The position numbers and the translations under genes were made by a program. DNA of 64,000 nt, counting the filler, from a bacterium (GTDB lineage Bacteria > UBA9089 > CG2-30-40-21 > SBAY01), in the NCBI GenBank assembly GCA_040757115.1. It is 8 parts of 8 records of this genome, joined end to end, with 100 filler letters (N's around TTAATTAATTAA, not from the genome) between each part and the next. Parts side by side here need not be neighbours in the genome. Positions count along the whole stretch, not along the records: positions 59,794 to 64,000 come from JBFLYA010000298.1; 7 more parts are not named here. One strand, given 5' to 3'. The notes under the pieces were generated by a model that ran no database searches, was not told the DNA's origin, and saw nothing but the letters and a program-made list of their open reading frames with translations. Of this stretch, positions 5,275 through 64,000 are shown in pieces (position 1 is the stretch's first letter; each line of letters starts with the position of its first letter).

Positions 5275-5587
5275 CTGGAGTTTCGTGAATTCTCTATGAT
5301 TCTTTCCTCCTTTAATCTTTGCGTTCTTTGCGGTTGATTTCTTTGCGTTCTTTGCGGTTAAAAAAAAGGATAAACCACAAAGGGCACAAAGTAGTAACGC
5401 AAAGGACACAAAGGGAAGAAAATAGGTGAAGCATTTTTTATCAACTCAACTTCAAAGGACAAGTTGCAAAAAAATCATCAGGCTTTTGAGCCTAATTTTA
5501 CCATCTTTGAGCAAAATAAACAGATTGATAAGGATAAAGAGAACTTTAGATAACCTCAATAGTAGCATAAAATTTACGAAAGTCCAG
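5275..5587. mobile_element. MITE, CTGGAGTTTCGTGAATT family, with 5-bp TSD
   Basis: 17-bp imperfect TIRs, AATAT direct repeat on both flanks, near-identical copy at 41173-41473. Confidence 0.8.
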
Positions 5588-5838: not shown

Positions 5839-7214
5839 ATGATGAATTTTAAAAATGTGTTAATTGTGGGTTTAATAGTAGGAGGATTAGTTTGTGGAGT
5901 AAACAATAGTTTTGCATCAGAGTCAGGTGTCTGTTGGGTAATTGACTGGTATCGCGGTGAAGTAGTGAAATTATCACCAAAGGGGAGTGAAACAGTTCGA
6001 GTGGGTGGATTTCAACTTCCTGATTCAATTTCAGTAAATCCCGCAGATGGCACATGCTGGGTGGCTGATAGTGGTCACGATCAAGTAGTGAAATTATCAC
6101 CAAATGGTAGTGAGATGGTGAGAGTGGGTGGATTTTCTATACTAAGGGCAGTTTCAGTAAATCCGGCAGATGGCACATGCTGGGTGNNNNNNNNNNNNNN
6201 NNNNNNNNNNNNNNNNNNNNNNNNNNNNNNNNNNNNNNNNNNNNNNNNNNNNNNNNNNNNNNNNNNNNNNNNNNNNNNNNNNNNNNGGTGGCTGATAGTG
6301 GTCACGATCAAGTAGTGAAATTATCACCAAATGGTAGTGAGATGGTGAGAGTGGGTGGATTTTCTATACTAAGGGCAGTTTCAGTAAATCCGGCAGATGG
6401 CACATGCTGGGTGGTTGATCACTTTCATAATCAAGTAGTAAAATTATCACCAAATGGGAGTGAAACAGTTAGAGTCGGTGGATTTGATAGACCACATTCA
6501 GTGGCAGTAAATCCGACAGATGGTACATGTTGGGTAAGTGATCCCTGGCAGGACCAAGTAGTGAAATTATCACCAGAGGGAAGTGTGACAGTGAGGGTTA
6601 AACTTGATCTCCCAGCCGGACTTTCAGTGAATTCAAGCGATGGTACATGCTGGGTGGTTGATCATCCCTATCAAGTAGTAAAATTATCACCAGAGGGAAG
6701 TGAAACAGTTCGAGTTGGTGGATTTTTCTGCCCATTTGTTTCAGTAAATCCGACTGATGGTACTTGTTGGGTGGGTGATTTCCAGCATGATCAAGTGGTA
6801 AAATTATCACCTGATGGAAGTGAGATATTCAGAGTTGGAGGATTTGATGGACCAGGTCCAGTTTCGGTAAATCCAGGGTTACCATTAGCGATTGAGATTA
6901 AGTTAAATGGTATTGAGTTTCATACTGAGGATACAATTACTATTGATGCGCATGTAACTAATGGTAAAGAGGAAGTGGATGTAGAAGGAAAATGTTGGGT
7001 TAGATTTCCTGATGATTCATTAATATCCCTATTGAATGTCCCTAAGGCTACTTTACCACCAGAGCTTGATATTATAATCCCTCTACTTCCTGGAGGCTAT
7101 ACCTTTAATGGTGGTGAACCTGAAGGAGAGTATAAGGCAGGTGGAAGATTAGCCTGCCCCATTACCCTTGATTATTTCAGCACGGACATTAAACCTTTTA
7201 CTTTTACTCCATAA
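5839..7214 (+). CDS. Secreted beta-propeller repeat protein (NHL/SMP-30-like) with C-terminal beta-sandwich; spans a 100-N gap
   Basis: Signal peptide, ~42-aa repeats (VSVNPxDGTCWVxDxxHDQVVKLSPxGSExVRVGGF); ORFs 5839-6315 and 6177-7214 are one gene split by gap 6187-6286. Confidence 0.8.
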
Positions 7215-8612: not shown

Positions 8613-8712
8613 NNNNNNNNNNNNNNNNNNNNNNNNNNNNNNNNNNNNNNNNNNNNTTAATTAATTAANNNNNNNNNNNNNNNNNNNNNNNNNNNNNNNN
8701 NNNNNNNNNNNN
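8613..8712. other. Artificial contig spacer (also 17257-17356, 25882-25981, 34378-34477, 42844-42943, 51288-51387, 59694-59793)
   Basis: N44-TTAATTAATTAA-N44, stop codons in all six frames. Confidence 0.98.
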
Positions 8713-9852: not shown

Positions 9853-10233
9853 AAATGAATAAAAGGATAAGTAAGTTTCTACTAACAATAATTACCATTC
9901 TAATTCTATTTATCCCTATCTTTTCAACTGGAGATGATGAGACTAAACCTCAACCAGGGGATGTATTTTTCAGAACAGACAATGTCACGCCATGACGCAA
10001 TGACGCAAAGAGAAGTAAGAAAATAGTTGAAAGGAAAAGGAAAGTGTGATATAATGGTAGTTAAAGTTAAGGAAGTATCAAATTTTAAAACCACCAAGTC
10101 CACAAAGGGCACAAAGAGAGAATAATCTTATAAATCTTTGTGTTCTTTGTGTGCTTTGTGGTTCAAAACATATAATCAGTTTAATCCGTTTAATCCGCTT
10201 ACTAAAAAAACAAAAAAGGAGTGTGATGGAAAA

Positions 10234-17256: not shown

Positions 17257-17356
17257 NNNNNNNNNNNNNNNNNNNNNNNNNNNNNNNNNNNNNNNNNNNN
17301 TTAATTAATTAANNNNNNNNNNNNNNNNNNNNNNNNNNNNNNNNNNNNNNNNNNNN

Positions 17357-25881: not shown

Positions 25882-25981
25882 NNNNNNNNNNNNNNNNNNN
25901 NNNNNNNNNNNNNNNNNNNNNNNNNTTAATTAATTAANNNNNNNNNNNNNNNNNNNNNNNNNNNNNNNNNNNNNNNNNNNN

Positions 25982-34377: not shown

Positions 34378-34477
34378 NNNNNNNNNNNNNNNNNNNNNNN
34401 NNNNNNNNNNNNNNNNNNNNNTTAATTAATTAANNNNNNNNNNNNNNNNNNNNNNNNNNNNNNNNNNNNNNNNNNNN

Positions 34478-38128: not shown

Positions 38129-38204
38129 TGCCTTGTCACTACTCAATTACTGGGTAGAGTTTCATAAGCGTTCAGCATTTAGCCATCTTTTAGCTAAAAA
38201 AAGC

Positions 38205-38312
38205 GTAACCGTTCAGGGTGTAATGAAGGAAAAATGGAAAAACTGGGGAAAAAAGATATTTTCCTCTCTGTTCCTCTGCGTCTCTGCGGTAAATTACCAC
38301 CTGAACGGTTAC
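38205..38312. mobile_element. 108-bp MITE with 13-bp TIRs and 8-bp TSD
   Basis: GTAACCGTTCAGG...CCTGAACGGTTAC flanked on both sides by AAAAAAGC. Confidence 0.88.
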
Positions 38313-38343
38313 AAAAAAGCGAACTGATTAGGAGTGAAACATT

Positions 38344-41172: not shown

Positions 41173-41473
41173 CTGGAGTTTCGTGAATTTTCTATGATTC
41201 CTTTCTCCTTTAATCTTTGCGTTCTTTGCGGTTGATTTCTTTACGTTCTTTGCGGTTAAAAAAAGATAAACCACAAAGGGCACAAAGTAGTAACGCAAAG
41301 GACACAAAGGGAAGAAAATAGGTGAAGCATTTTTTATCAACTCAACTTCAAAGGATAAGTTGCAAAAAAAAATCATCAGGCTTTTGAGCCTAATTTTGCC
41401 ATCTTTGAGCAAAATAAACAGATTGATAAGGTTCAGATAGCCTCAATGGCTCCTTAAATTAACGAAACTCCAG
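41173..41473. mobile_element. MITE, CTGGAGTTTCGTGAATT family, second copy
   Basis: CTGGAGTTTCGTGAATTT ... AAATTAACGAAACTCCAG; interior nearly identical to 5275-5587. Confidence 0.8.
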
Positions 41474-42840: not shown

Positions 42841-42950
42841 AACNNNNNNNNNNNNNNNNNNNNNNNNNNNNNNNNNNNNNNNNNNNNTTAATTAATTAAN
42901 NNNNNNNNNNNNNNNNNNNNNNNNNNNNNNNNNNNNNNNNNNNTATCAAA

Positions 42951-51287: not shown

Positions 51288-51561
51288 NNNNNNNNNNNNN
51301 NNNNNNNNNNNNNNNNNNNNNNNNNNNNNNNTTAATTAATTAANNNNNNNNNNNNNNNNNNNNNNNNNNNNNNNNNNNNNNNNNNNNAAGGGGTGAAAAT
51401 CAAAAAAAAGCAAGAAATTGACGTTTGCAACTCTTTTGAAATCAAGGAGTTAGATGGCAGGAGGGCAATAAGAAAAAGAGTGCATCTGTAACTACAAGCA
51501 AATCAACATGTTGTGAATTTCGTGAAAGGCACAATTACCAAACAAAAGGAGGTATTAAAAA

Positions 51562-54110: not shown

Positions 54111-54138
54111 AGAAAAATAAGTCAAAAATCAAATTTTT

Positions 54139-54373
54139 GTAACCGTTCAGGTAATCCTTTACCGCAGAGACGCAGAGAAACAGAGAGGAAAATATCTTTT
54201 TTTCGTGTTTTTCGGTGTTTAAAAAGGCTTAAAAACAGTTAGTCGAAAGTAAGTATTAAAAGATTAATAAACAACGAAAGACTCGAAATGCACAAAAAAA
54301 GGAAATTTCTGTCTCAGGTGAATAGATTTTAATTTTTTCTCTGCATCTCTGTGTCTCTGCGGTGAACAATTAC
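54139..54373. mobile_element. MITE, GTAACCGTTCAGG family, degenerate right end
   Basis: GTAACCGTTCAGG ... GTGAACAATTAC; internal CGCAGAGA/TCTCTGCG inverted repeats as in 38205-38312. Confidence 0.6.
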
Positions 54374-54663
54374 TAACTTTTAAATTTGGAATTTCTCTGT
54401 GGTTAAAATTACAAATCTACATTTTCAGAATATGGCTTCACGAAATTAAATAAAGAGATTACTCTCGGAGAGATGTTCTGTTGGTAGAGAGAGGTTTTAC
54501 AAAATTCAAAATATGATTGTCAGGCAAAAACTTCAGAGGGGAAGAAAAACCACAAAGGCACAAAGTTTTTACAATACATTGATGATGTTGGAATTAATTT
54601 CAATCTTTTTTTCGTGTCTTTGTGGTGAGAATTTGAGTTTTTGCCACCTAAAGGAGTATTTGG

Positions 54664-55545
54664 ATGCGTTTTTTAGATGTTAAAACAGATTATGCCTTCA
54701 AAAAGGTTTTTGGCTCTCAAGGGAGTAAGGATATCCTTATTAGCTTTCTTAACTCGGTGATTGATTTTAAAGAGACTGAAAAAATCGTTGATTTAGTAAT
54801 CGTTGACCCCTACCAAATACCATTAATCAAGGGGATGAAGGATACCTATGTCGATGTTAAAGCCAAACTCTCAAACCAGAAGAATGTCATTATCGAGATG
54901 CAGGTTTTGAATGTAGAAGGGTTTGAGAAAAGGATTTTATATAATGCGGCTAAGACATATTCAGCTCAGCTAAAAGAGACAGAATCATTTACCAGCCTTG
55001 AACCTATTATTGCTCTAACCATTACGGACTTTATCATGTTCGAGGATGTAGATAAGGTTATCACCTATTTCAATCTCATTGAAAAGGAGACTTTAATCAA
55101 ATACCATGATGAAATCGAACTTGTTTTTATCGAATTGCCCAAATTCAAGAAGAATGAGGATGAGCTGGATTCAATCAAAGACAAATGGATATATTTTATA
55201 AAGAATGCAGGCAGACTTGAATATACTCCAGAGAGCTTAGTTAAAGAGATAGAAATAAAGGAGGCATTTGAAATAGCCAATACTGCGGGGATGAGTGAAA
55301 AGGAGTTAGAAATTCAATATAAGCGGCACGATTTTATCCGAATGCAAAGAGGTGCGATAGAGTTTGCCTTAAAACAAGGGTTAAAACAAGGAATACAACA
55401 AGGAATACAACAAGGAATACAACAAGGCAAAATAGAAGTAGCGAAAAGTCTTTTGAAATCAGGGGAGAAAGTTGAAAAAATATCTCAGGTAACGGGATTA
55501 ACAATAGAGGAAATTAAGGGTATTAATTATAGTGAAAGACATTAA
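54664..55545 (+). CDS. Rpn family PD-(D/E)XK nuclease/putative transposase
   Basis: DYAFKKVFG, DVKA...IIEMQ, FIELPKF, (QQGI)n, ISQVTGLTIEEI. Confidence 0.9.
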   Translation: MRFLDVKTDYAFKKVFGSQGSKDILISFLNSVIDFKETEKIVDLVIVDPYQIPLIKGMKDTYVDVKAKLSNQKNVIIEMQVLNVEGFEKRILYNAAKTYSAQLKETESFTSLEPIIALTITDFIMFEDVDKVITYFNLIEKETLIKYHDEIELVFIELPKFKKNEDELDSIKDKWIYFIKNAGRLEYTPESLVKEIEIKEAFEIANTAGMSEKELEIQYKRHDFIRMQRGAIEFALKQGLKQGIQQGIQQGIQQGKIEVAKSLLKSGEKVEKISQVTGLTIEEIKGINYSERH

Positions 55546-59407: not shown

Positions 59408-59693
59408 GGTGGTGTCTGAAAATAACTCTAATAGTGAAATCTATGCAGATTTGGTGTCCAAAAGGGATTTCCTCCAAAGAGCAAAATGCAAAACTCGTTT
59501 ATAGTTTATGGTTTATAGTGTATAGTTTATAGTGTATAGTTTATAGTCCTTCAACTATCAACTATAAACTATCTTTGCCAAAGTTCAGTAAAATTATCTC
59601 TTTCCTTTCAGCGTTAAAATACTTGAAGCAAAGATATTACCAAACTCCTCCAACTCTTTGAGAAACCCTGCTACTTCCTCTTTGAAATTTGAT
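59408..59693. mobile_element. Composite repeat: GGTGGTGTCTGAAAAT end, TTTATAG/CTATCAA heptamer hairpin, four-helix-bundle remnant
   Basis: Blocks shared with 8489-8575, 33472-33665 and 42951-43185. Confidence 0.75.
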
Positions 59694-59866
59694 NNNNNNN
59701 NNNNNNNNNNNNNNNNNNNNNNNNNNNNNNNNNNNNNTTAATTAATTAANNNNNNNNNNNNNNNNNNNNNNNNNNNNNNNNNNNNNNNNNNNNATAGAAG
59801 GAGGCCAATGTCAATCATTTTTGTTAAAAAATCTACAGATTTTTTAACAGATTAACTACTGATATA

Positions 59867-60295
59867 TCAAGGGGTTAACGCTATTCTGGTTAGCTCACTT
59901 GCCGATTGCAGGTTTATATGAGCATTTCCATGGACTGGTTCCAAAAAGTCTAGTTTTTCGCATATTTCAAATTCGTTGCATTCCCAACATCCTTTAATTT
60001 TTCTCTTCTGACAACACTTTCTTATCTTGCAGAAAGGTGGACCACCTCCATTCTTGCATCCCTTCTTACAACGAAATTTGACCATGGTTCCCAGGACTTC
60101 ATAGCACCTGTCGTAGTCCTTAAAGACTTTGCCAAAACCTTCGTCTGCAATAAACTCTGCAAACTTGTCATACCTGCATGACCTCAATTCTTTCCTAAGA
60201 TCTCTTGCCAAATCAGGAATTTTGCCAGTATAGCCGTGGCAATCTCCGCAGTAGAGACCACAATATGCAATCAAATTTTTATCTTCCGCCTTCAT
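59867..60295 (-). CDS. DUF3795 Cys-rich protein, integron cassette; C-terminus probably replaced
   Basis: AYCGLYCGDC...C..GC...CKIRKCC...GCWECNEF..C; diverges from paralog 61837 after HGNAHI. Confidence 0.8.
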   Translation of the reverse strand: MKAEDKNLIAYCGLYCGDCHGYTGKIPDLARDLRKELRSCRYDKFAEFIADEGFGKVFKDYDRCYEVLGTMVKFRCKKGCKNGGGPPFCKIRKCCQKRKIKGCWECNEFEICEKLDFLEPVHGNAHINLQSASELTRIALTP

Positions 60296-60312
60296 CTTTT
60301 TCTCCTCCTGCC

Positions 60313-60372
60313 ACCTAACGATTGAGTTCAGCGGCGGCGTGAAACGCCGTCCGCTTCAGCGATTGGTTATAT
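60313..60372 (-). mobile_element. attC site (60 bp)
   Basis: Minus strand ATATAAC-CAATC-GCTGAAGC...GCTGAAC-TCAATC-GTTAGGT; MBL stop codon lies in R''. Confidence 0.9.
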
Positions 60373-61077
60373 GGTTTCTTGTTTTTTATTTAAACATTTC
60401 TTTAATTCTTCAACGGAAAAACACTTGCCGTGTGCAGGATATATAGTAATAGCACCACATTGTATTATTTTTCCCCAGCTTTTATATACTTCATTAAAAC
60501 TCTCTGCTTCAAGTGGTCTAACTTTTTGTCCAAACACTCTTAATGTATTCATTGCAACATCTCCAACAAAAATATCTCCAGATGAAAGAAGTAATGAAAT
60601 AGAATCTTTTGAATGCCCAGGTGTATGAATTATTTTACCTTGAATACCTGTAAGATTATAAATATCAACGCGATCATTATTGACAATTATATCGTAATTT
60701 GTCAAGTTTATGGGGGTATAGTTATATTTAATAAAAGGAGATAAAATCATATCAAGCAATTTCACCCATATATTATAGCTTTTAGTTTTCTTGGTATATG
60801 TCATTCCTTTTTGCATATAATTGATTGCATTTTTATGTGCAATTATCTTACAATTTGATTCTTTACGTATATCCTCAACTAAAGCAGCATGATCATGGTG
60901 ATGATGGGTTAGTAAAATATATTTTATCGAATCAACGCAAATATTAAGTTTACTCAACTTATTTTTAAAATCACTATATTTCCCCACCCAGCCACAGTCT
61001 ATAAGTAAATAACCTTCCTTACATTTCAACAGATAGTAATTAGTATCATTAATTACGATAATATATACATCTTTCAT
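60367..61077 (-). CDS. MBL-fold metallo-hydrolase, integron cassette
   Basis: LIDCG, THHHHDH, HTPGHS, FVGD, YPAHG. Confidence 0.9.
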   Translation of the reverse strand: MKDVYIIVINDTNYYLLKCKEGYLLIDCGWVGKYSDFKNKLSKLNICVDSIKYILLTHHHHDHAALVEDIRKESNCKIIAHKNAINYMQKGMTYTKKTKSYNIWVKLLDMILSPFIKYNYTPINLTNYDIIVNNDRVDIYNLTGIQGKIIHTPGHSKDSISLLLSSGDIFVGDVAMNTLRVFGQKVRPLEAESFNEVYKSWGKIIQCGAITIYPAHGKCFSVEELKKCLNKKQETI

Positions 61078-61089
61078 AATATTTGCTGC

Positions 61090-61151
61090 ATATAACGACC
61101 AAGCTCACCTGCCCGAGCGAAGCGAGGGTCAGGTGCAGCGATGGGTTAGAC
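61090..61151 (-). mobile_element. attC site (62 bp)
   Basis: GTCTAAC-CCATC-GCTGCACC...GGTGAGC-TTGGTC-GTTATAT; extra base in L'' fixes minus orientation. Confidence 0.92.
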
Positions 61152-61316
61152 TGTCTTTTTACCACGAAGAGCACGAAGGTCACGAAGATTGGACAAGGCA
61201 AATCTTTTTATGCCTTCTTTCAACCTTTCTACATTAAAATTTTGCTAACTTTATTAGATATTTCATCAAATTTCACTTCGTGCTCTTCGTGTCCTTCGTG
61301 GTTTTAATCTCTTTTA
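61152..61316 (-). pseudogene. Non-coding cassette holding an internally deleted GxxExxY-like gene in 9-mer inverted repeats
   Basis: GTG-KFDEISNKV joined out of frame to NFNVERLKEGIKRF; flanked by CACGAAG / CTTCGTG arrays. Confidence 0.65.
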
Positions 61317-61379
61317 GTCTAACGATTGAGCTAAGCTGCGGCGGGCTTGCCCGCCGTCAGCTTCAGCGATTGGTTAAGC
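61317..61379 (-). mobile_element. attC site (63 bp)
   Basis: GCTTAAC-CAATC-GCTGAAGC...GCTTAGC-TCAATC-GTTAGAC. Confidence 0.9.
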
Positions 61380-61487
61380 TTTTAATGGTCGCTGTCCCTA
61401 TTTTTGCTATTTATTTCCAGGGCTGCCACCACTTTTTCACTGTTTTTGGTTGCCGTGTTGTTAGATGGTTATCCTCTTTGTGATCTT

Positions 61488-61760
61488 TCAACCCCAAATG
61501 GCTTTATGGACTATATCCTCTGGTTTATATCCTAACTCTTCCAATTTATTCTTTAGTATCTTTAATTGCAATAAAGGACAACTTGCATCTTCACACGCTT
61601 CATCTGGATCTGTCGTATGTTCATATTCCAGATGGAAGCATATCCAATGCATTTTTTCAAATGTTTCATAATCTTTTCTATGTTTTTTGACTGGTTTACC
61701 ACATCTAACACAAATTAAATCTCTGTCATTTTGACCCACTATTGTCTCCCGTCTTTCCAT
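61488..61760 (-). CDS. Small Cys/His zinc-binding hypothetical, integron cassette (start may be GTG ~61739)
   Basis: CVRC...MHWICFHLEYEH...DPDEAC...CP. Confidence 0.7.
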   Translation of the reverse strand: MERRETIVGQNDRDLICVRCGKPVKKHRKDYETFEKMHWICFHLEYEHTTDPDEACEDASCPLLQLKILKNKLEELGYKPEDIVHKAIWG

Positions 61761-61818
61761 CTAACCACAGAGCTCACCTGCCCGCCAAAGGCGGGTCAGG
61801 TGCAGCGATTGGTTATAT
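61759..61818 (-). mobile_element. attC site (60 bp)
   Basis: ATATAAC-CAATC-GCTGCACC...GGTGAGC-TCTGTG-GTTAGAT. Confidence 0.92.
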
Positions 61819-61836
61819 GGAACCATGTTCAGCCCA

Positions 61837-62301
61837 TCACAGCCAGATATAAAATTTCTCTCTGTATTCTACCCACTTTCTTAAACCATATTCTTTGATT
61901 TTTCTCAGATTTTGTTGAGGACTATCGCCATGAAGTGGTTTAAGAAACTCAAATTTATCGCATGCCTCGAATTCATTGCATTGCCAACAACCATCGATAT
62001 GTTTGGATTGAGCACACCCTTTAATTTTGCAAGATTGCTCACACCCATCACCGCCTAACCTACAGGGATTATCACATCTCAGTTTGATTATTGTCCCTAA
62101 AACTTCAAGGAATTTGTGGTAATGGTTAAGTTCTTTTATGGAGTTAGCTTCAACTTCTGCATAGTTGTCAAATCTATCTTTTTGTAGTTTAGTAGATAAT
62201 TCTCGTGCTAAATCAGCAGTTTTACTTCTATAGCGTATACAGTCGCCACAATATAGACCACAATATGCAGTGAGATTTGTTTCTTCCTGGTTTCTATTCA
62301 T
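61837..62301 (-). CDS. DUF3795 Cys-rich protein, integron cassette
   Basis: AYCGLYCGDC...C..PC...CKIKGC...GCWQCNEF..C. Confidence 0.82.
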   Translation of the reverse strand: MNRNQEETNLTAYCGLYCGDCIRYRSKTADLARELSTKLQKDRFDNYAEVEANSIKELNHYHKFLEVLGTIIKLRCDNPCRLGGDGCEQSCKIKGCAQSKHIDGCWQCNEFEACDKFEFLKPLHGDSPQQNLRKIKEYGLRKWVEYREKFYIWL

Positions 62302-62337
62302 TGTTTACGCTTCCTTTCCGCGAGATGTTACAATTCC

Positions 62338-62398
62338 ACATAACGACTGAGCTCAGCCGCCGAGCGTAAGCGAGGTCGGCTGCAGCGATGGGTTAGGT
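62338..62398 (-). mobile_element. attC site (61 bp)
   Basis: ACCTAAC-CCATC-GCTGCAGC...GCTGAGC-TCAGTC-GTTATGT. Confidence 0.92.
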
Positions 62399-62468
62399 GG
62401 CAATATTATGCATAAAACCTTACCCACAGGAACTGTTTAGCCCAACAATATCTCAAAAAATCTCTCTT

Positions 62469-62744
62469 TCATTTTAGAAGTGCATCTGCCTCCGATGGAG
62501 TTGCTAAAGGATAAATGTCAAAACTCACTGGTACAATGCTTAACCATTGGGTCATCAGTTTATGAAGCTCATCATTTGAAGATACATCAAAAATTACGAT
62601 AGAACCTCTCCCTACTCTGGGATAGAAACAGATTACCTTGTTTTCTGATTCTAAACCCTTAATCCAAGACCTAAATTCTGATCTCGCATTTTTTACATCT
62701 TCGAGCTTAGAAGGATGAGGAGTACTTATCACCAAATACAACAT
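62469..62744 (-). CDS. Muconolactone isomerase/DUF3303-like dimeric alpha-beta barrel protein, integron cassette
   Basis: MLYLVI...GRGSIVIFDVSSNDELHKLM..W....FDIYPL. Confidence 0.65.
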   Translation of the reverse strand: MLYLVISTPHPSKLEDVKNARSEFRSWIKGLESENKVICFYPRVGRGSIVIFDVSSNDELHKLMTQWLSIVPVSFDIYPLATPSEADALLK

Positions 62745-62778
62745 AGCTACCCTTCTTTCCTTGTTGAATTAGTTGTCC

Positions 62779-62910
62779 ACCTAACGATAAAGTTCAGGTG
62801 CGGCGGGGAGAATTACCACAAAAGTTTGATAGCAAGATAAAACTTTGAGAGACCACAAAACTCTGACCACGGCACAGTCCCCCGCCGTCAACTGCAACGC
62901 AGGGTTAGAC
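62779..62910 (-). mobile_element. Long attC site (132 bp)
   Basis: GTCTAAC-CCTGC-GTTGCAGT...CCTGAAC-TTTATC-GTTAGGT with GACGGCGGGG/CCCCGCCGC stem. Confidence 0.82.
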
Positions 62911-63097
62911 AAAAGCTCTGATTCGCTGTCTTTTCCTTTTCCTCTGCCTCACCGAATTATTGTGCATTCCACATTCACGGTTTGCCCCTAAAATATCTCC
63001 TTTTTATTTTCTCACACAAAGCCACAAAGAACACAAAGGTTTATTGTTTTATTCAATTCCTTTGTGACTTTGTGTCTCTGTGTGATTATTTTTATTA

Positions 63098-63231
63098 GTC
63101 TAACGATAGAACTCACCTGCAGCAGGGAGAATTACCACTAAACTTTCATAAGCAAGATAAAACTCTGGTAAACTACAAAACTATCTCAATCACGCCCAAC
63201 CCCTGCTGTCAGGTCCAGTGAATGGTTAGAA
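63098..63231 (-). mobile_element. Long attC site (134 bp), homologous to 62779-62910
   Basis: TTCTAAC-CATTC-ACTGGACC...GGTGAGT-TCTATC-GTTAGAC; shares GGAGAATTACCAC and AGCAAGATAAAACT. Confidence 0.82.
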
Positions 63232-63337
63232 AAAGCTGCACTTCGCCGTCTTTTTCCTTTCTTCTTTTTGATAGTTAATTCTCAATTCGAGGTCTGACCC
63301 CAATCCCTGACTGACCCCAATCCCCCGCCTTAATTTG

Positions 63338-63808
63338 TTATGCCTTATTTTTCTTCCTTTTTGATTTTTGCTTTGTATTTGTGTCAATGCGATGTCGAAA
63401 CATCCAGTAATGGGTCTTTACTCTTTGAATGTATGCCTGGTCCTGGAGAACAACTTTTTCCACCATGTCTAAAATCAGAGGTGCAATCTCCGATTGTGGA
63501 CTGGCTAAATTCAGAACTGGGCCTTTCAACTCGTCTATGATTTTCGGATCGTCATCTCCCATCCATTTCGCATAAAACTCTGGACTTTCCCACCCATAGG
63601 CAATAACTGCTTCGGCTTGTTTGGTCAGCGAAGATACAACATAGAAAAAGACCCGTCGGCAATCACAATCGGGCTCGTCACAATACATTTCGAGCAAAGA
63701 ATAATGAGCAGGTGGTAAATCCCATGATGAGTTTTCAAGTACGGTAATAGTGCGTGTTTCTCGTTCTGCTATTTTGGGAAAATAATCATGAAATAAAACA
63801 TATGGCAT
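63338..63808 (-). CDS. Conserved hypothetical, first integron cassette
   Basis: AERETR, EMYCDEPDCDCRRV, IAYGWES; AGGAG RBS just after GTTAGAC. Confidence 0.75.
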   Translation of the reverse strand: MPYVLFHDYFPKIAERETRTITVLENSSWDLPPAHYSLLEMYCDEPDCDCRRVFFYVVSSLTKQAEAVIAYGWESPEFYAKWMGDDDPKIIDELKGPVLNLASPQSEIAPLILDMVEKVVLQDQAYIQRVKTHYWMFRHRIDTNTKQKSKRKKNKA

Positions 63809-63823
63809 TTATCTTCTCCTTAT

Positions 63824-63860
63824 GTCTAACCTTAGATTATACTGCCTATTGGCAGTTTTA
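63824..63860 (-). mobile_element. Putative attI site
   Basis: GTTAGAC core starting cassette 1 without an attC stem upstream; preceded by GGCAGTATAAT motif repeated at 63970-63984. Confidence 0.6.
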
Positions 63861-63890
63861 TATTACTGCATTATAAGTTAGGCTATTTAT

Positions 63891-63919
63891 AGAGTAGCAT
63901 AAATAAAATATTCTGTCAA
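63891..63919 (-). promoter_or_regulatory. Putative Pc cassette promoter
   Basis: Minus strand TTGACA-N17-TACTCT with TG extension, pointing into the array. Confidence 0.65.
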
Positions 63920-64000
63920 GAAAAATTTTAATATCAAAATTAGAAAATACTGAAAAATAACATCCTGGTATTATACTGCCTATTAGCGGTTTTTATTTTA

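Follow-up and report, generated by a model that had tools for sequence, protein, structure and literature searches.

Repetitive extragenic palindromic (REP) sequences, together with their associated tyrosine transposases (RAYTs) and the hairpin-forming REP doublets (REPINs), were reportedly described by Nunvar in 2010 and by Bertels and Rainey in 2011, and are systems in which a single small gene lies between inverted short repeats, no target-site duplication is seen, and gene-less hairpin doublets, placed between genes, are far more numerous than the gene. Miniature inverted-repeat transposable elements (MITEs) formed by internal deletion keep their inverted repeats and both ends of the parent gene, the interior being lost. 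The intervening sequences (IVSs) of 23S rRNA that carry an open reading frame (ORF), of the Leptospira type, encode four-helix-bundle proteins, and the Correia-type hairpin elements are cut by RNase III; both hold a small ORF or spacer in a long stem, are co-transcribed with host genes and are tolerated inside transcription units. Here we describe an integron cassette that resembles each of these in part, found in a 64,000-nucleotide stretch of DNA (the window) from the bacterial assembly GCA_040757115.1. In a reading that we hold with good confidence, what the cassette carries is a defunct 'gene-in-hairpin' module, the module being a small gene of the GxxExxY family (PDDEXK_3; TIGR04256, PF13366) enclosed by two inverted arrays of 9-mers. 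The survey of other genomes given below shows that such gene-inside-hairpin modules occur widely among bacteria.

Integron cassettes without a coding sequence are known as a class (PMC8876359). The cassette is like them in its attC bounds (RYYYAAC and GTTRRRY), in its place in a one-directional array and in having no intact ORF, and differs from them in that its cargo is a pseudogene of a hairpin-bounded nuclease module and not a promoter or small RNA. It lies on the minus strand at 61097-61322 (226 bp, ends read from the G/TT positions of two R' cores) and consists of a 165-bp cargo (61152-61316) and its own 61-bp attC. This attC (61091-61151, minus strand) has the cores GTCTAAC (R'', 61151-61145) and GTTATAT (R', 61097-61091) and scores 73.3 bits with covariance model R1, which was built from five short attC sites of the array and contains 22 base pairs. 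The attC of the upstream cassette (61317-61379, minus strand; 85.4 bits; alignment A1) reads GCTTAAC...GTTAGAC, and its R' core GTTAGAC (61323 to 61317) contains the crossover point at which the cassette starts. The attC palindrome is shared with the neighbouring sites, and the array runs in one direction. A sequence-only reading of the same DNA had noted matched GTTAGAC and GTCTAAC cores bounding a cassette of about 170 bp. What it observed is confirmed: both 7-mers stand on the plus strand, at 61145-61151 and 61317-61323. They are the R'' of the cassette's own attC and the R' of the preceding one, and the cassette as a whole, with its attC, runs from 61322 to 61097 on the minus strand and measures 226 bp, of which 165 bp are cargo.

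The cargo is made up of a 142-bp element with 14 and 9 nt of flank. In the element, two inverted arrays of three CACGAAG 9-mers stand around an 88-nt loop. The 5' array (61276-61302, minus strand) reads ACCACGAAG GACACGAAG AGCACGAAG, an arrangement also seen in an intact locus (L037, below), and is adjoined by a GTG start codon that forms part of its last 9-mer unit; the 3' array (61161-61187) reads CTTCGTGAC CTTCGTGCT CTTCGTGGT on the minus strand and ACCACGAAG AGCACGAAG GTCACGAAG on the plus strand. The earlier description of an array and its inverse holds for the orientation, but the two are not exact inverses: they are complementary at 23 of 27 positions, and all four mismatches fall in the two variable bases that each 9-mer has. 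Matches to CACGAAGNNCACGAAG with at most two mismatches number 11 in the window, against 0.07 expected from shuffles, and the four exact matches all lie within the cassette element, the only CACGAAG-type element of the window. By a strict three-unit criterion the window holds seven arrays, against none or one in each of 20 shuffles. The element folds as a single long interrupted stem in which the two arrays pair, at -49.5 kcal/mol as RNA (z -6.6) and -28.6 kcal/mol as DNA (z -6.75), with 0 of 200 shuffles as good in either case. It stands in sense orientation within the cassette array, and a scan of the array contig gave no sigma-70-like promoter or terminator-like site in 61097-61322.

Minus-strand translations of the loop are V-KFDEISNKV-SKILM* and QNFNVERLKEGIKRFALSNLRDLRALRGKKTV*, in different frames, and match the two ends of GxxExxY proteins, as the sequence-only reading had proposed. 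The N-terminal remnant (61247-61276, minus strand) is the GTG followed by KFDEISNKV, family positions 2-10, and the C-terminal remnant (61194-61241, minus strand) is NFNVERLKEGIKRFAL, family positions 108-123, which has no normal stop, its frame continuing through the 3' array to a TAA in the attC R'' core. The deletion junction between them (61242-61246, minus strand) marks the loss of about 97 codons, family positions 11-107. With position-specific scoring matrices (PSSMs) built, like the profile, from 113 family members, KFDEISNKV scored 13.6 against 2.8 for the next best of 73,973 six-frame window positions, and NFNVERLKEGIKRFAL scored 29.0 against -19.7 for the next best of 52,841 window positions. 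Hmmsearch aligned the C-terminal peptide at model positions 108-123 with an E-value of 0.0023, the sole window match below E 1. The conserved G24, E27, Y30, D67, E77 and K79 (alignments A2 and A4) all fall inside the deleted part, and the GxxExxY motif and the D...ExK catalytic residues are absent from what remains. We regard the remnant as a GxxExxY pseudogene; no nuclease can be made from it, because the deletion took every catalytic residue and shifted the frame.

Chance resemblance, or an artefact of assembly, is a very improbable source of this pattern. The peptides are short (9 and 16 residues) and the assembly is fragmented, and two points here count against our reading: Pfam and NCBIfam gave no match for the 24-aa and 32-aa remnant translations even at E-values up to 10, because the peptides are too short, and the collapse could in principle be an assembly error. 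Against this stand the wide margins by which both peptides are the top matches of the window, their order, orientation and contact with the arrays, which are those of L037, the excess of arrays over shuffle expectation, and an independent collapsed copy in another genome (L081). The stability of the stem bears on a second explanation, by which the hairpin is retained for a function in the cassette transcript (RNA processing site, insulator, attenuator or regulatory RNA), with no significance attached to the gene remnants. There are documented ORF-less cassettes that serve as promoters or regulatory RNAs (PMC8876359), and two of the seven complete cassettes of the array are ORF-less with array hairpins. 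We nevertheless consider such a function unlikely, as the cassette has no promoter-like or terminator-like site, the loop is a frameshifted, decayed coding sequence that resembles the product of neutral decay, and the variable bases of the 9-mers have not been kept complementary. Under the reading of a dead module, an internal deletion of about 290 bp would have removed codons 11-107 and shifted the frame, leaving a 27-bp interrupted stem and an 88-nt loop as the sole cassette content. The cargo contains nothing else, and the simplest history is therefore that the cassette once had an intact module as its gene, and that this module collapsed in place.

Flanking arrays of the same kind do accompany an intact gene, as the sequence-only reading would require, the example coming from another genome. 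When one genome per species was scanned for runs of three exact CACGAAG units, at least 127 stretches were obtained, with flanks taken for 80, and these numbers are a sample and not a census; the arrays occur in Proteobacteria, Acidobacteriota, Planctomycetota, Chloroflexota (including complete Herpetosiphon genomes), Verrucomicrobiota and others. At locus L037, from a Desulfobacteraceae bin, a 123-codon ORF (966-1334) lies exactly between arrays at 939-964 and 1341-1365, which are of the same CACGAAG unit type as those of the cassette and have the ACC end in common with them. The ORF matches PF13366 at 1.7e-43 and TIGR04256 ('GxxExxY protein') at 7.3e-45. Its N-terminus, LEFDELSNQV, corresponds to VKFDEISNKV in the window, with the arrays equally placed, and its C-terminus, NFNVTKFKNGIKRFVL, corresponds to NFNVERLKEGIKRFAL and is followed by a stop and then by the array. 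All 127 listed loci were searched in six frames with a hidden Markov model (HMM) of this subfamily, which distant family members would escape. Eight gave a GxxExxY signal (L037, L022, L068, L120, L105, L008, L077 and L081), and in all eight the array stands directly against the gene end with the expected polarity. The listed loci have 488 candidate ORFs close to arrays, and 50 of these were compared with Pfam; L037 was the sole PDDEXK_3 match, four unrelated families were found, and 45 ORFs had no match. Among 120 listed homologues seven are longer than 123 aa, and six of the seven carry translated arrays just before the Met (HHEEHEG, HHEEHEGTRR, PRRARRTRR). In the wider family, 52 of 150 representatives have at least 12 residues before the domain, and in 10 of these 52 the extension holds period-3 repeats beyond the 95th percentile of the background (TTKDTKSTK, HQAHQGHQ).

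A protein-first search of plasmid records returned eight GxxExxY genes. Three of them (Bacteroides finegoldii, Bernardetia and Sphingomonas parapaucimobilis) have inverted 9-mer arrays of 25-30 nt, 86-92% complementary, with the units CACAGAG, CGCAGAG and CGCGAAG; a Treponema gene has a 16-nt inverted repeat, and a Gemmatirosa gene is preceded by a single unit and followed by a separate array hairpin. Both neighbours are co-oriented with the gene in all six annotated plasmid loci. The GxxExxY traces in the listed CACGAAG-array loci all score against the profile of a subfamily of 80-95% identity, and relatives at 44-56% identity carry other units (CACAGAG or CGCGAAG); array unit type tracks protein lineage. 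The fabD-fabG interval of S. parapaucimobilis contains a 437-bp block of arrays and gene, and that of S. paeninsulae is a spacer of about 32 nt with neither hairpin nor gene, the spans differing by 436 bp. The ends of the module are sharp: across 157 unique ends, the first unit follows a conserved AC (A 82%, C 92%), itself preceded by TT(C/A), and no such conservation is seen beyond the third unit.

The intact module is about 430 bp long and consists of a promoterless 123-codon GxxExxY gene inside two inverted arrays with the consensus (TT)(C/A)AC-CACGAAG-RR-CACGAAG-RR-CACGAAG, or three 9-mers, the 5' array adjoining the start codon. The gene leaves no room for a promoter of its own, and in the six annotated plasmid loci the module fills the spacer between the neighbouring genes. 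Gene and arrays form one unit, because six independent lines of evidence agree; they are shown to be co-inherited, present or absent as a block, which upholds the proposal that gene and arrays behave as a unit, and this unit is heritable and probably mobile.

GxxExxY/PDDEXK_3 is represented by 22,062 clusters at 50% identity that match at E-values up to 1e-3, and one subfamily is 80-95% identical across distant phyla. An AlphaFold model from 74 diverse sequences reached a predicted local distance difference test (pLDDT) score of 96, a shallow alignment having given an unusable 53.6, and shows the layout alpha-alpha-beta4-alpha-beta of a minimal PD-(D/E)xK nuclease. The best fold neighbours in the PDB are Cas4 SSO0001, lambda exonuclease and the Holliday junction resolvase Hjc, with template modelling (TM) scores of 0.4-0.5; a PDB sequence search with the L037 protein gave no match. 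Many family representatives of about 265-295 aa (P0241-P0245 and similar) are true tandem fusions of two GxxExxY domains, and their linkers hold no translated arrays.

The claim that the unit can shrink is borne out in unrelated genomes. Locus L081 retains positions 2-19 and 112-123 between both arrays, in parallel with the copy in the window; L022 retains positions 1-70 fused directly to the 3' array, L077 retains 96-123 only, and L008 retains 1-21 only. Comparison of these copies shows recurrent decay of units to gene-less hairpins. Of the 182 seed arrays among the listed loci, 112 have an inward-facing partner within 700 nt, and the loops between paired arrays measure 12-400 nt, mostly less than 130 nt. 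Loops of 180 nt or more are coding in L037 only, the others in the listed loci being nested or composite hairpins; nested hairpins occur in L073, L092, L099 and L124. Flanking bases tend to prolong the inverted repeat (TTC...GAA, TTA...TAA). Other arrangements were also observed: seven tandem copies of an array hairpin at a spacing of about 155 nt in L052 (2001-3256), tandem array hairpins at a spacing of 1557 nt in L054-L056, and one-directional runs of eight to nine units with no inverted partner in L018 (2001-2079) and L046 (2001-2070).

The excess of gene-less hairpins (one intact gene among 127 listed array loci) and the heterogeneity of their loops would suit the reverse order of events, in which array hairpins are primary and kept by the host in the manner of REPs, GxxExxY genes home into their loops, and the cassette first held a hairpin. 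We rate this order as quite unlikely. Each protein subfamily has array units of its own, the unoccupied fabD-fabG site lacks the hairpin as well as the gene, and truncated genes that keep both arrays (L022, L081 and the window copy) show a change from gene-bearing to gene-less forms. Several observations do weigh against the view that gene-bearing modules gave rise to the hairpins and move by means of their own nuclease. Only 8 of the 127 listed CACGAAG loci have any GxxExxY trace, and most loops are unrelated to the gene and differ even within a single genome (L011, L032 and L044 come from one bin); because gene traces are few and loops heterogeneous, descent of all hairpins from a gene-bearing form would go beyond the evidence. 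A target-site duplication is not visible: neither the cassette element nor the elements of the inspected loci stand between direct repeats, and the fabD-fabG pair is only about 74% identical, with no empty site close enough to define a duplication. Two of the eight plasmid genes (Fusobacteria and Prevotella) are flanked by direct and not inverted repeats, and one (Persicobacter) has no flanking repeats. Profile and library scans found no intact GxxExxY copy in the 64-kb window. The structural matches are generic, with a best E-value of 3.4e-3, and the fold search names no substrate because the neighbours are only generic PD-(D/E)xK proteins; both nuclease activity and recognition of the arrays by the GxxExxY protein are predictions.

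Set beside the systems named at the outset, the module departs from REP/RAYT in that its gene encodes a PF13366 PD-(D/E)xK nuclease and not an IS200/IS605-like tyrosine (HUH) transposase, in that its ends are three tandem 9-mers and not a single palindrome, and in that the loops of its gene-less forms differ within a genome. With MITEs it shares terminal repeats of the parent type, namely three-unit CACGAAG arrays with the ACC end as in L037; it differs from them in having no recognisable transposase and no visible target-site duplication, and no family of near-identical copies was seen. From the 23S rRNA IVSs it differs in lying outside rRNA and in encoding a different protein family.

The cassette belongs to an array of seven attC sites at 60306-63238 on the minus strand, with cassette ORFs all on the same strand. 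The five short attC sites have a mean column identity of 76% (alignment A1). R1 recovers these five training sites and two long (about 133 nt) untrained sites with E-values of about 1e-6; all seven matches are on the minus strand, and there are none elsewhere in the window. Over 59867-63808 every notable ORF is on the minus strand, and the ORFs are parted by imperfect palindromes with an RYYYAAC-like core first and a GTTRRRY-like core last. There are seven complete cassettes, with recognisable cargo comprising two DUF3795 proteins, a metallo-beta-lactamase-fold protein and a DUF3303 protein; the DUF3795 proteins, encoded by two cassettes (59867-60295 and 61837-62301), are paralogous and cysteine-rich. 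In the attC at 61759-61818 the unpaired extra bases fall, by sequence reading alone, on the minus-strand R''-L'' arm, in agreement with the direction of the ORFs. The cargo of a second ORF-less cassette (62785-63102, minus strand) opens with an inverted-array hairpin of the CACAAAG type (63013-63076), which is set 15 nt from the R' core and has about 100 nt of unrelated non-coding DNA behind it; the long attC of this cassette (62779-62911) scores 34.8 bits with R1 and was not in the training set, and hmmsearch found no GxxExxY remnant in the cassette. Array hairpins thus occupy two of the seven complete cassettes, both ORF-less.

This second cassette bears on how the element came to lie between attC sites. 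It is possible, though on balance improbable, that a module or its shrunken form was transposed into an existing cassette or into the space between attC sites, in which case the cassette would at no time have had it as its gene. At other loci, modules and hairpins occupy short gaps that separate co-oriented genes, beginning 2-20 nt past a stop codon, and the inter-attC space is a gap of this kind; the hairpin of the second cassette is close to the R' core with unrelated DNA behind it, and the nesting of hairpins in one another implies insertion activity. The cargo, in contrast, is the element with only its 14 and 9 nt of flank and no trace of another ORF, and the near-empty cassettes that such an insertion requires are not otherwise seen among the seven. 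On the preferred reading, collapse of a cassette-borne module in place, the attC boundaries were kept intact, and because they are intact an integron integrase could still move the cargo.

No integrase gene (intI) is in view in 59794-64000, where the window stops at 64000, which also weighs against that reading; on present evidence the array is an attC cluster without a known integrase. At 63824-64000 a minus-strand GTTAGAC core is preceded by two direct repeats (63841-63856 and 63975-63990; ACTGCCTATT(G/A)GC(A/G)GT), and this combination may be an attI with integrase-binding repeats. An Rfam scan of the window at gathering thresholds gave no match.

A general link between integrons and the other 9-mer hairpins of the window, which had also been proposed, was not found. 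The window consists of pieces of about 8.5 kb joined by linkers of 44 N + TTAATTAATTAA + 44 N (8613-8712, 17257-17356, 25882-25981, 34378-34477, 42844-42943, 51288-51387 and 59694-59793), with an additional run of 100 N at 6187-6286; features on different pieces are therefore physically unlinked in the data. The source DNA is AT-rich (G+C 31-39%). An EF-Tu gene on another of the pieces reaches no more than 88-90% identity with any other listed protein, the best named matches being metagenome bins labelled 'bacterium' or Nitrospirota (88%) and Candidatus Desantisbacteria (83%), and the source is therefore an uncultured lineage known from a fragmented assembly. The integron was found on the last piece, 59794-64000, a separate contig, and the hairpins cited in support of the link lie on other contigs, the window being a chain of contigs. 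The 10090-10165 and 54549-54626 hairpins and the 5317-5412 and 41217-41310 repeats have CACAAAG or CGCAAAG units, and R1 found no attC near those at 5317, 10093, 41217 or 54549 when run over the window. Nor was a full attC match found in 135 listed loci from other genomes, a weak negative because R1 is tuned, and specific, to the attC type of this genome; two partial matches (L055 and L056; E 0.48, model positions 20-57) were rejected as noise. The link to integrons is accordingly weak, consisting of one dead-module cassette and a second ORF-less hairpin cassette, and the interpretation offered in the sequence-only reading is, taken overall, partly supported.

The hairpins on the other contigs have features of their own. 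A repeat of about 260-330 bp, largely identical in its core, occurs on two contigs (5275-5535 and 41185-41445), each time directly after the stop codon of a gene, and its arrays are 'inside-out', with CTTTGCG units followed by CACAAAG/CGCAAAG and with 15 nt between the GGT and ACC ends, which face one another; from its layout it looks like two abutting element ends, or a junction. CGCAGAG-type 9-mer hairpins with an outer inverted repeat (GTAACCGTTCAGG...) lie at 38203-38314 and 54137-54223, and there is therefore a third unit type in the same genome. The CACAAAG hairpin at 54549-54626 stands downstream of a DUF3782/PDDEXK_10 gene and about 40 nt upstream of a PDDEXK_2 (Rpn/YhgA-like 'transposase') gene at 54664-55545; ...GINFNL... 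in its loop recalls LINFNV of the GxxExxY family, a match that is not significant and for which no claim is made. A TTTAATCCG tandem motif at 10171-10198 directly follows the 10090-10165 hairpin, and the GxxExxY gene of Fusobacteria (L132) has a similar direct repeat, CAGATTTAATCCGTGTACCTAT, in its flanks; motifs of this kind may be another repeat type tied to the family. Between 25926 and 33373, NADH dehydrogenase genes (chains 4L, 6 and 1 and the 4Fe-4S subunit) are separated by co-oriented inserted genes, namely HepT/nucleotidyltransferase toxin-antitoxin-like pairs, an AAA_15/AAA_21 ATPase and small unknown ORFs, and the region is an operon colonised by small, selfish-looking modules, comparable to GxxExxY in fabD-fabG. 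A tandem repeat of about 14 nt (TTTATAGTGTATAG-like) lies at 59490-59570, near the end of the contig that precedes the integron.

As to mechanism, we tentatively propose, while stopping short of calling it the probable answer, that the module is a selfish mobile element that depends on read-through transcription and whose arrays are terminal inverted repeats recognised by the small nuclease it encodes. The arrays would be recognised as folded or duplex DNA, the module would ride in host operons and cassette arrays and be expressed through read-through, and the gene-less hairpins would be a MITE-like residue that it leaves behind. A role at the RNA level, as an alternative or in addition, is live: the stem could sequester the purine-rich, Shine-Dalgarno-like units and the start codon, or it could be cleaved in the manner of rRNA intervening sequences and so bracket the transcript and process it. 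A wider and more doubtful proposal is that GxxExxY genes and their inverted three-unit 9-mer arrays together constitute a pan-bacterial class of mobile elements, not described before, that also moves through integrons as cassettes. Here the minimal PD-(D/E)xK nuclease would act on its own array hairpins in a RAYT/REPIN-like manner by a different chemistry, a large part of the 'purine 9-mer' intergenic hairpins of many phyla would be its gene-less descendants, and carriage by integrons would follow because the module is promoterless, compact and bounded by a hairpin.

The architecture seems not to have been described before. Searches of the full-text literature found no paper on a hairpin-bounded GxxExxY gene, though the curators' notes of TIGR04256 and PF13366 may mention it, and the array motifs returned primer noise only. 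In the passages available, 'GxxExxY' in PMC8934634 is an unrelated gene-neighbourhood annotation, PDDEXK_3/PF13366 stands in a superfamily catalogue in a row marked 'Unknown' (PMC3424549), and the one preprint that combines integrons and PDDEXK deals, in the text available, with other nucleases. Titles and abstracts on the 'Intervening sequence protein' or 'four helix bundle protein' contained nothing relevant.

Taken alone, the cassette is a modest curiosity, and its value lies in the module that it exposes. For integron biology it is a concrete example of an ORF-less cassette that is the wreck of a mobile gene, and of cassette arrays collecting such modules. The fixed architecture, the sharp ACC end, the presence or absence as a block and the decay to hairpins point to a selfish or mobile nuclease module, which would supply an origin for at least some of the common and unexplained intergenic hairpin repeats of bacteria. 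If the pan-bacterial proposal is true, two hairpin-based mobility systems intersect. GxxExxY/PDDEXK_3 is a very large family of unknown function, and the fixed architecture gives it a testable role.

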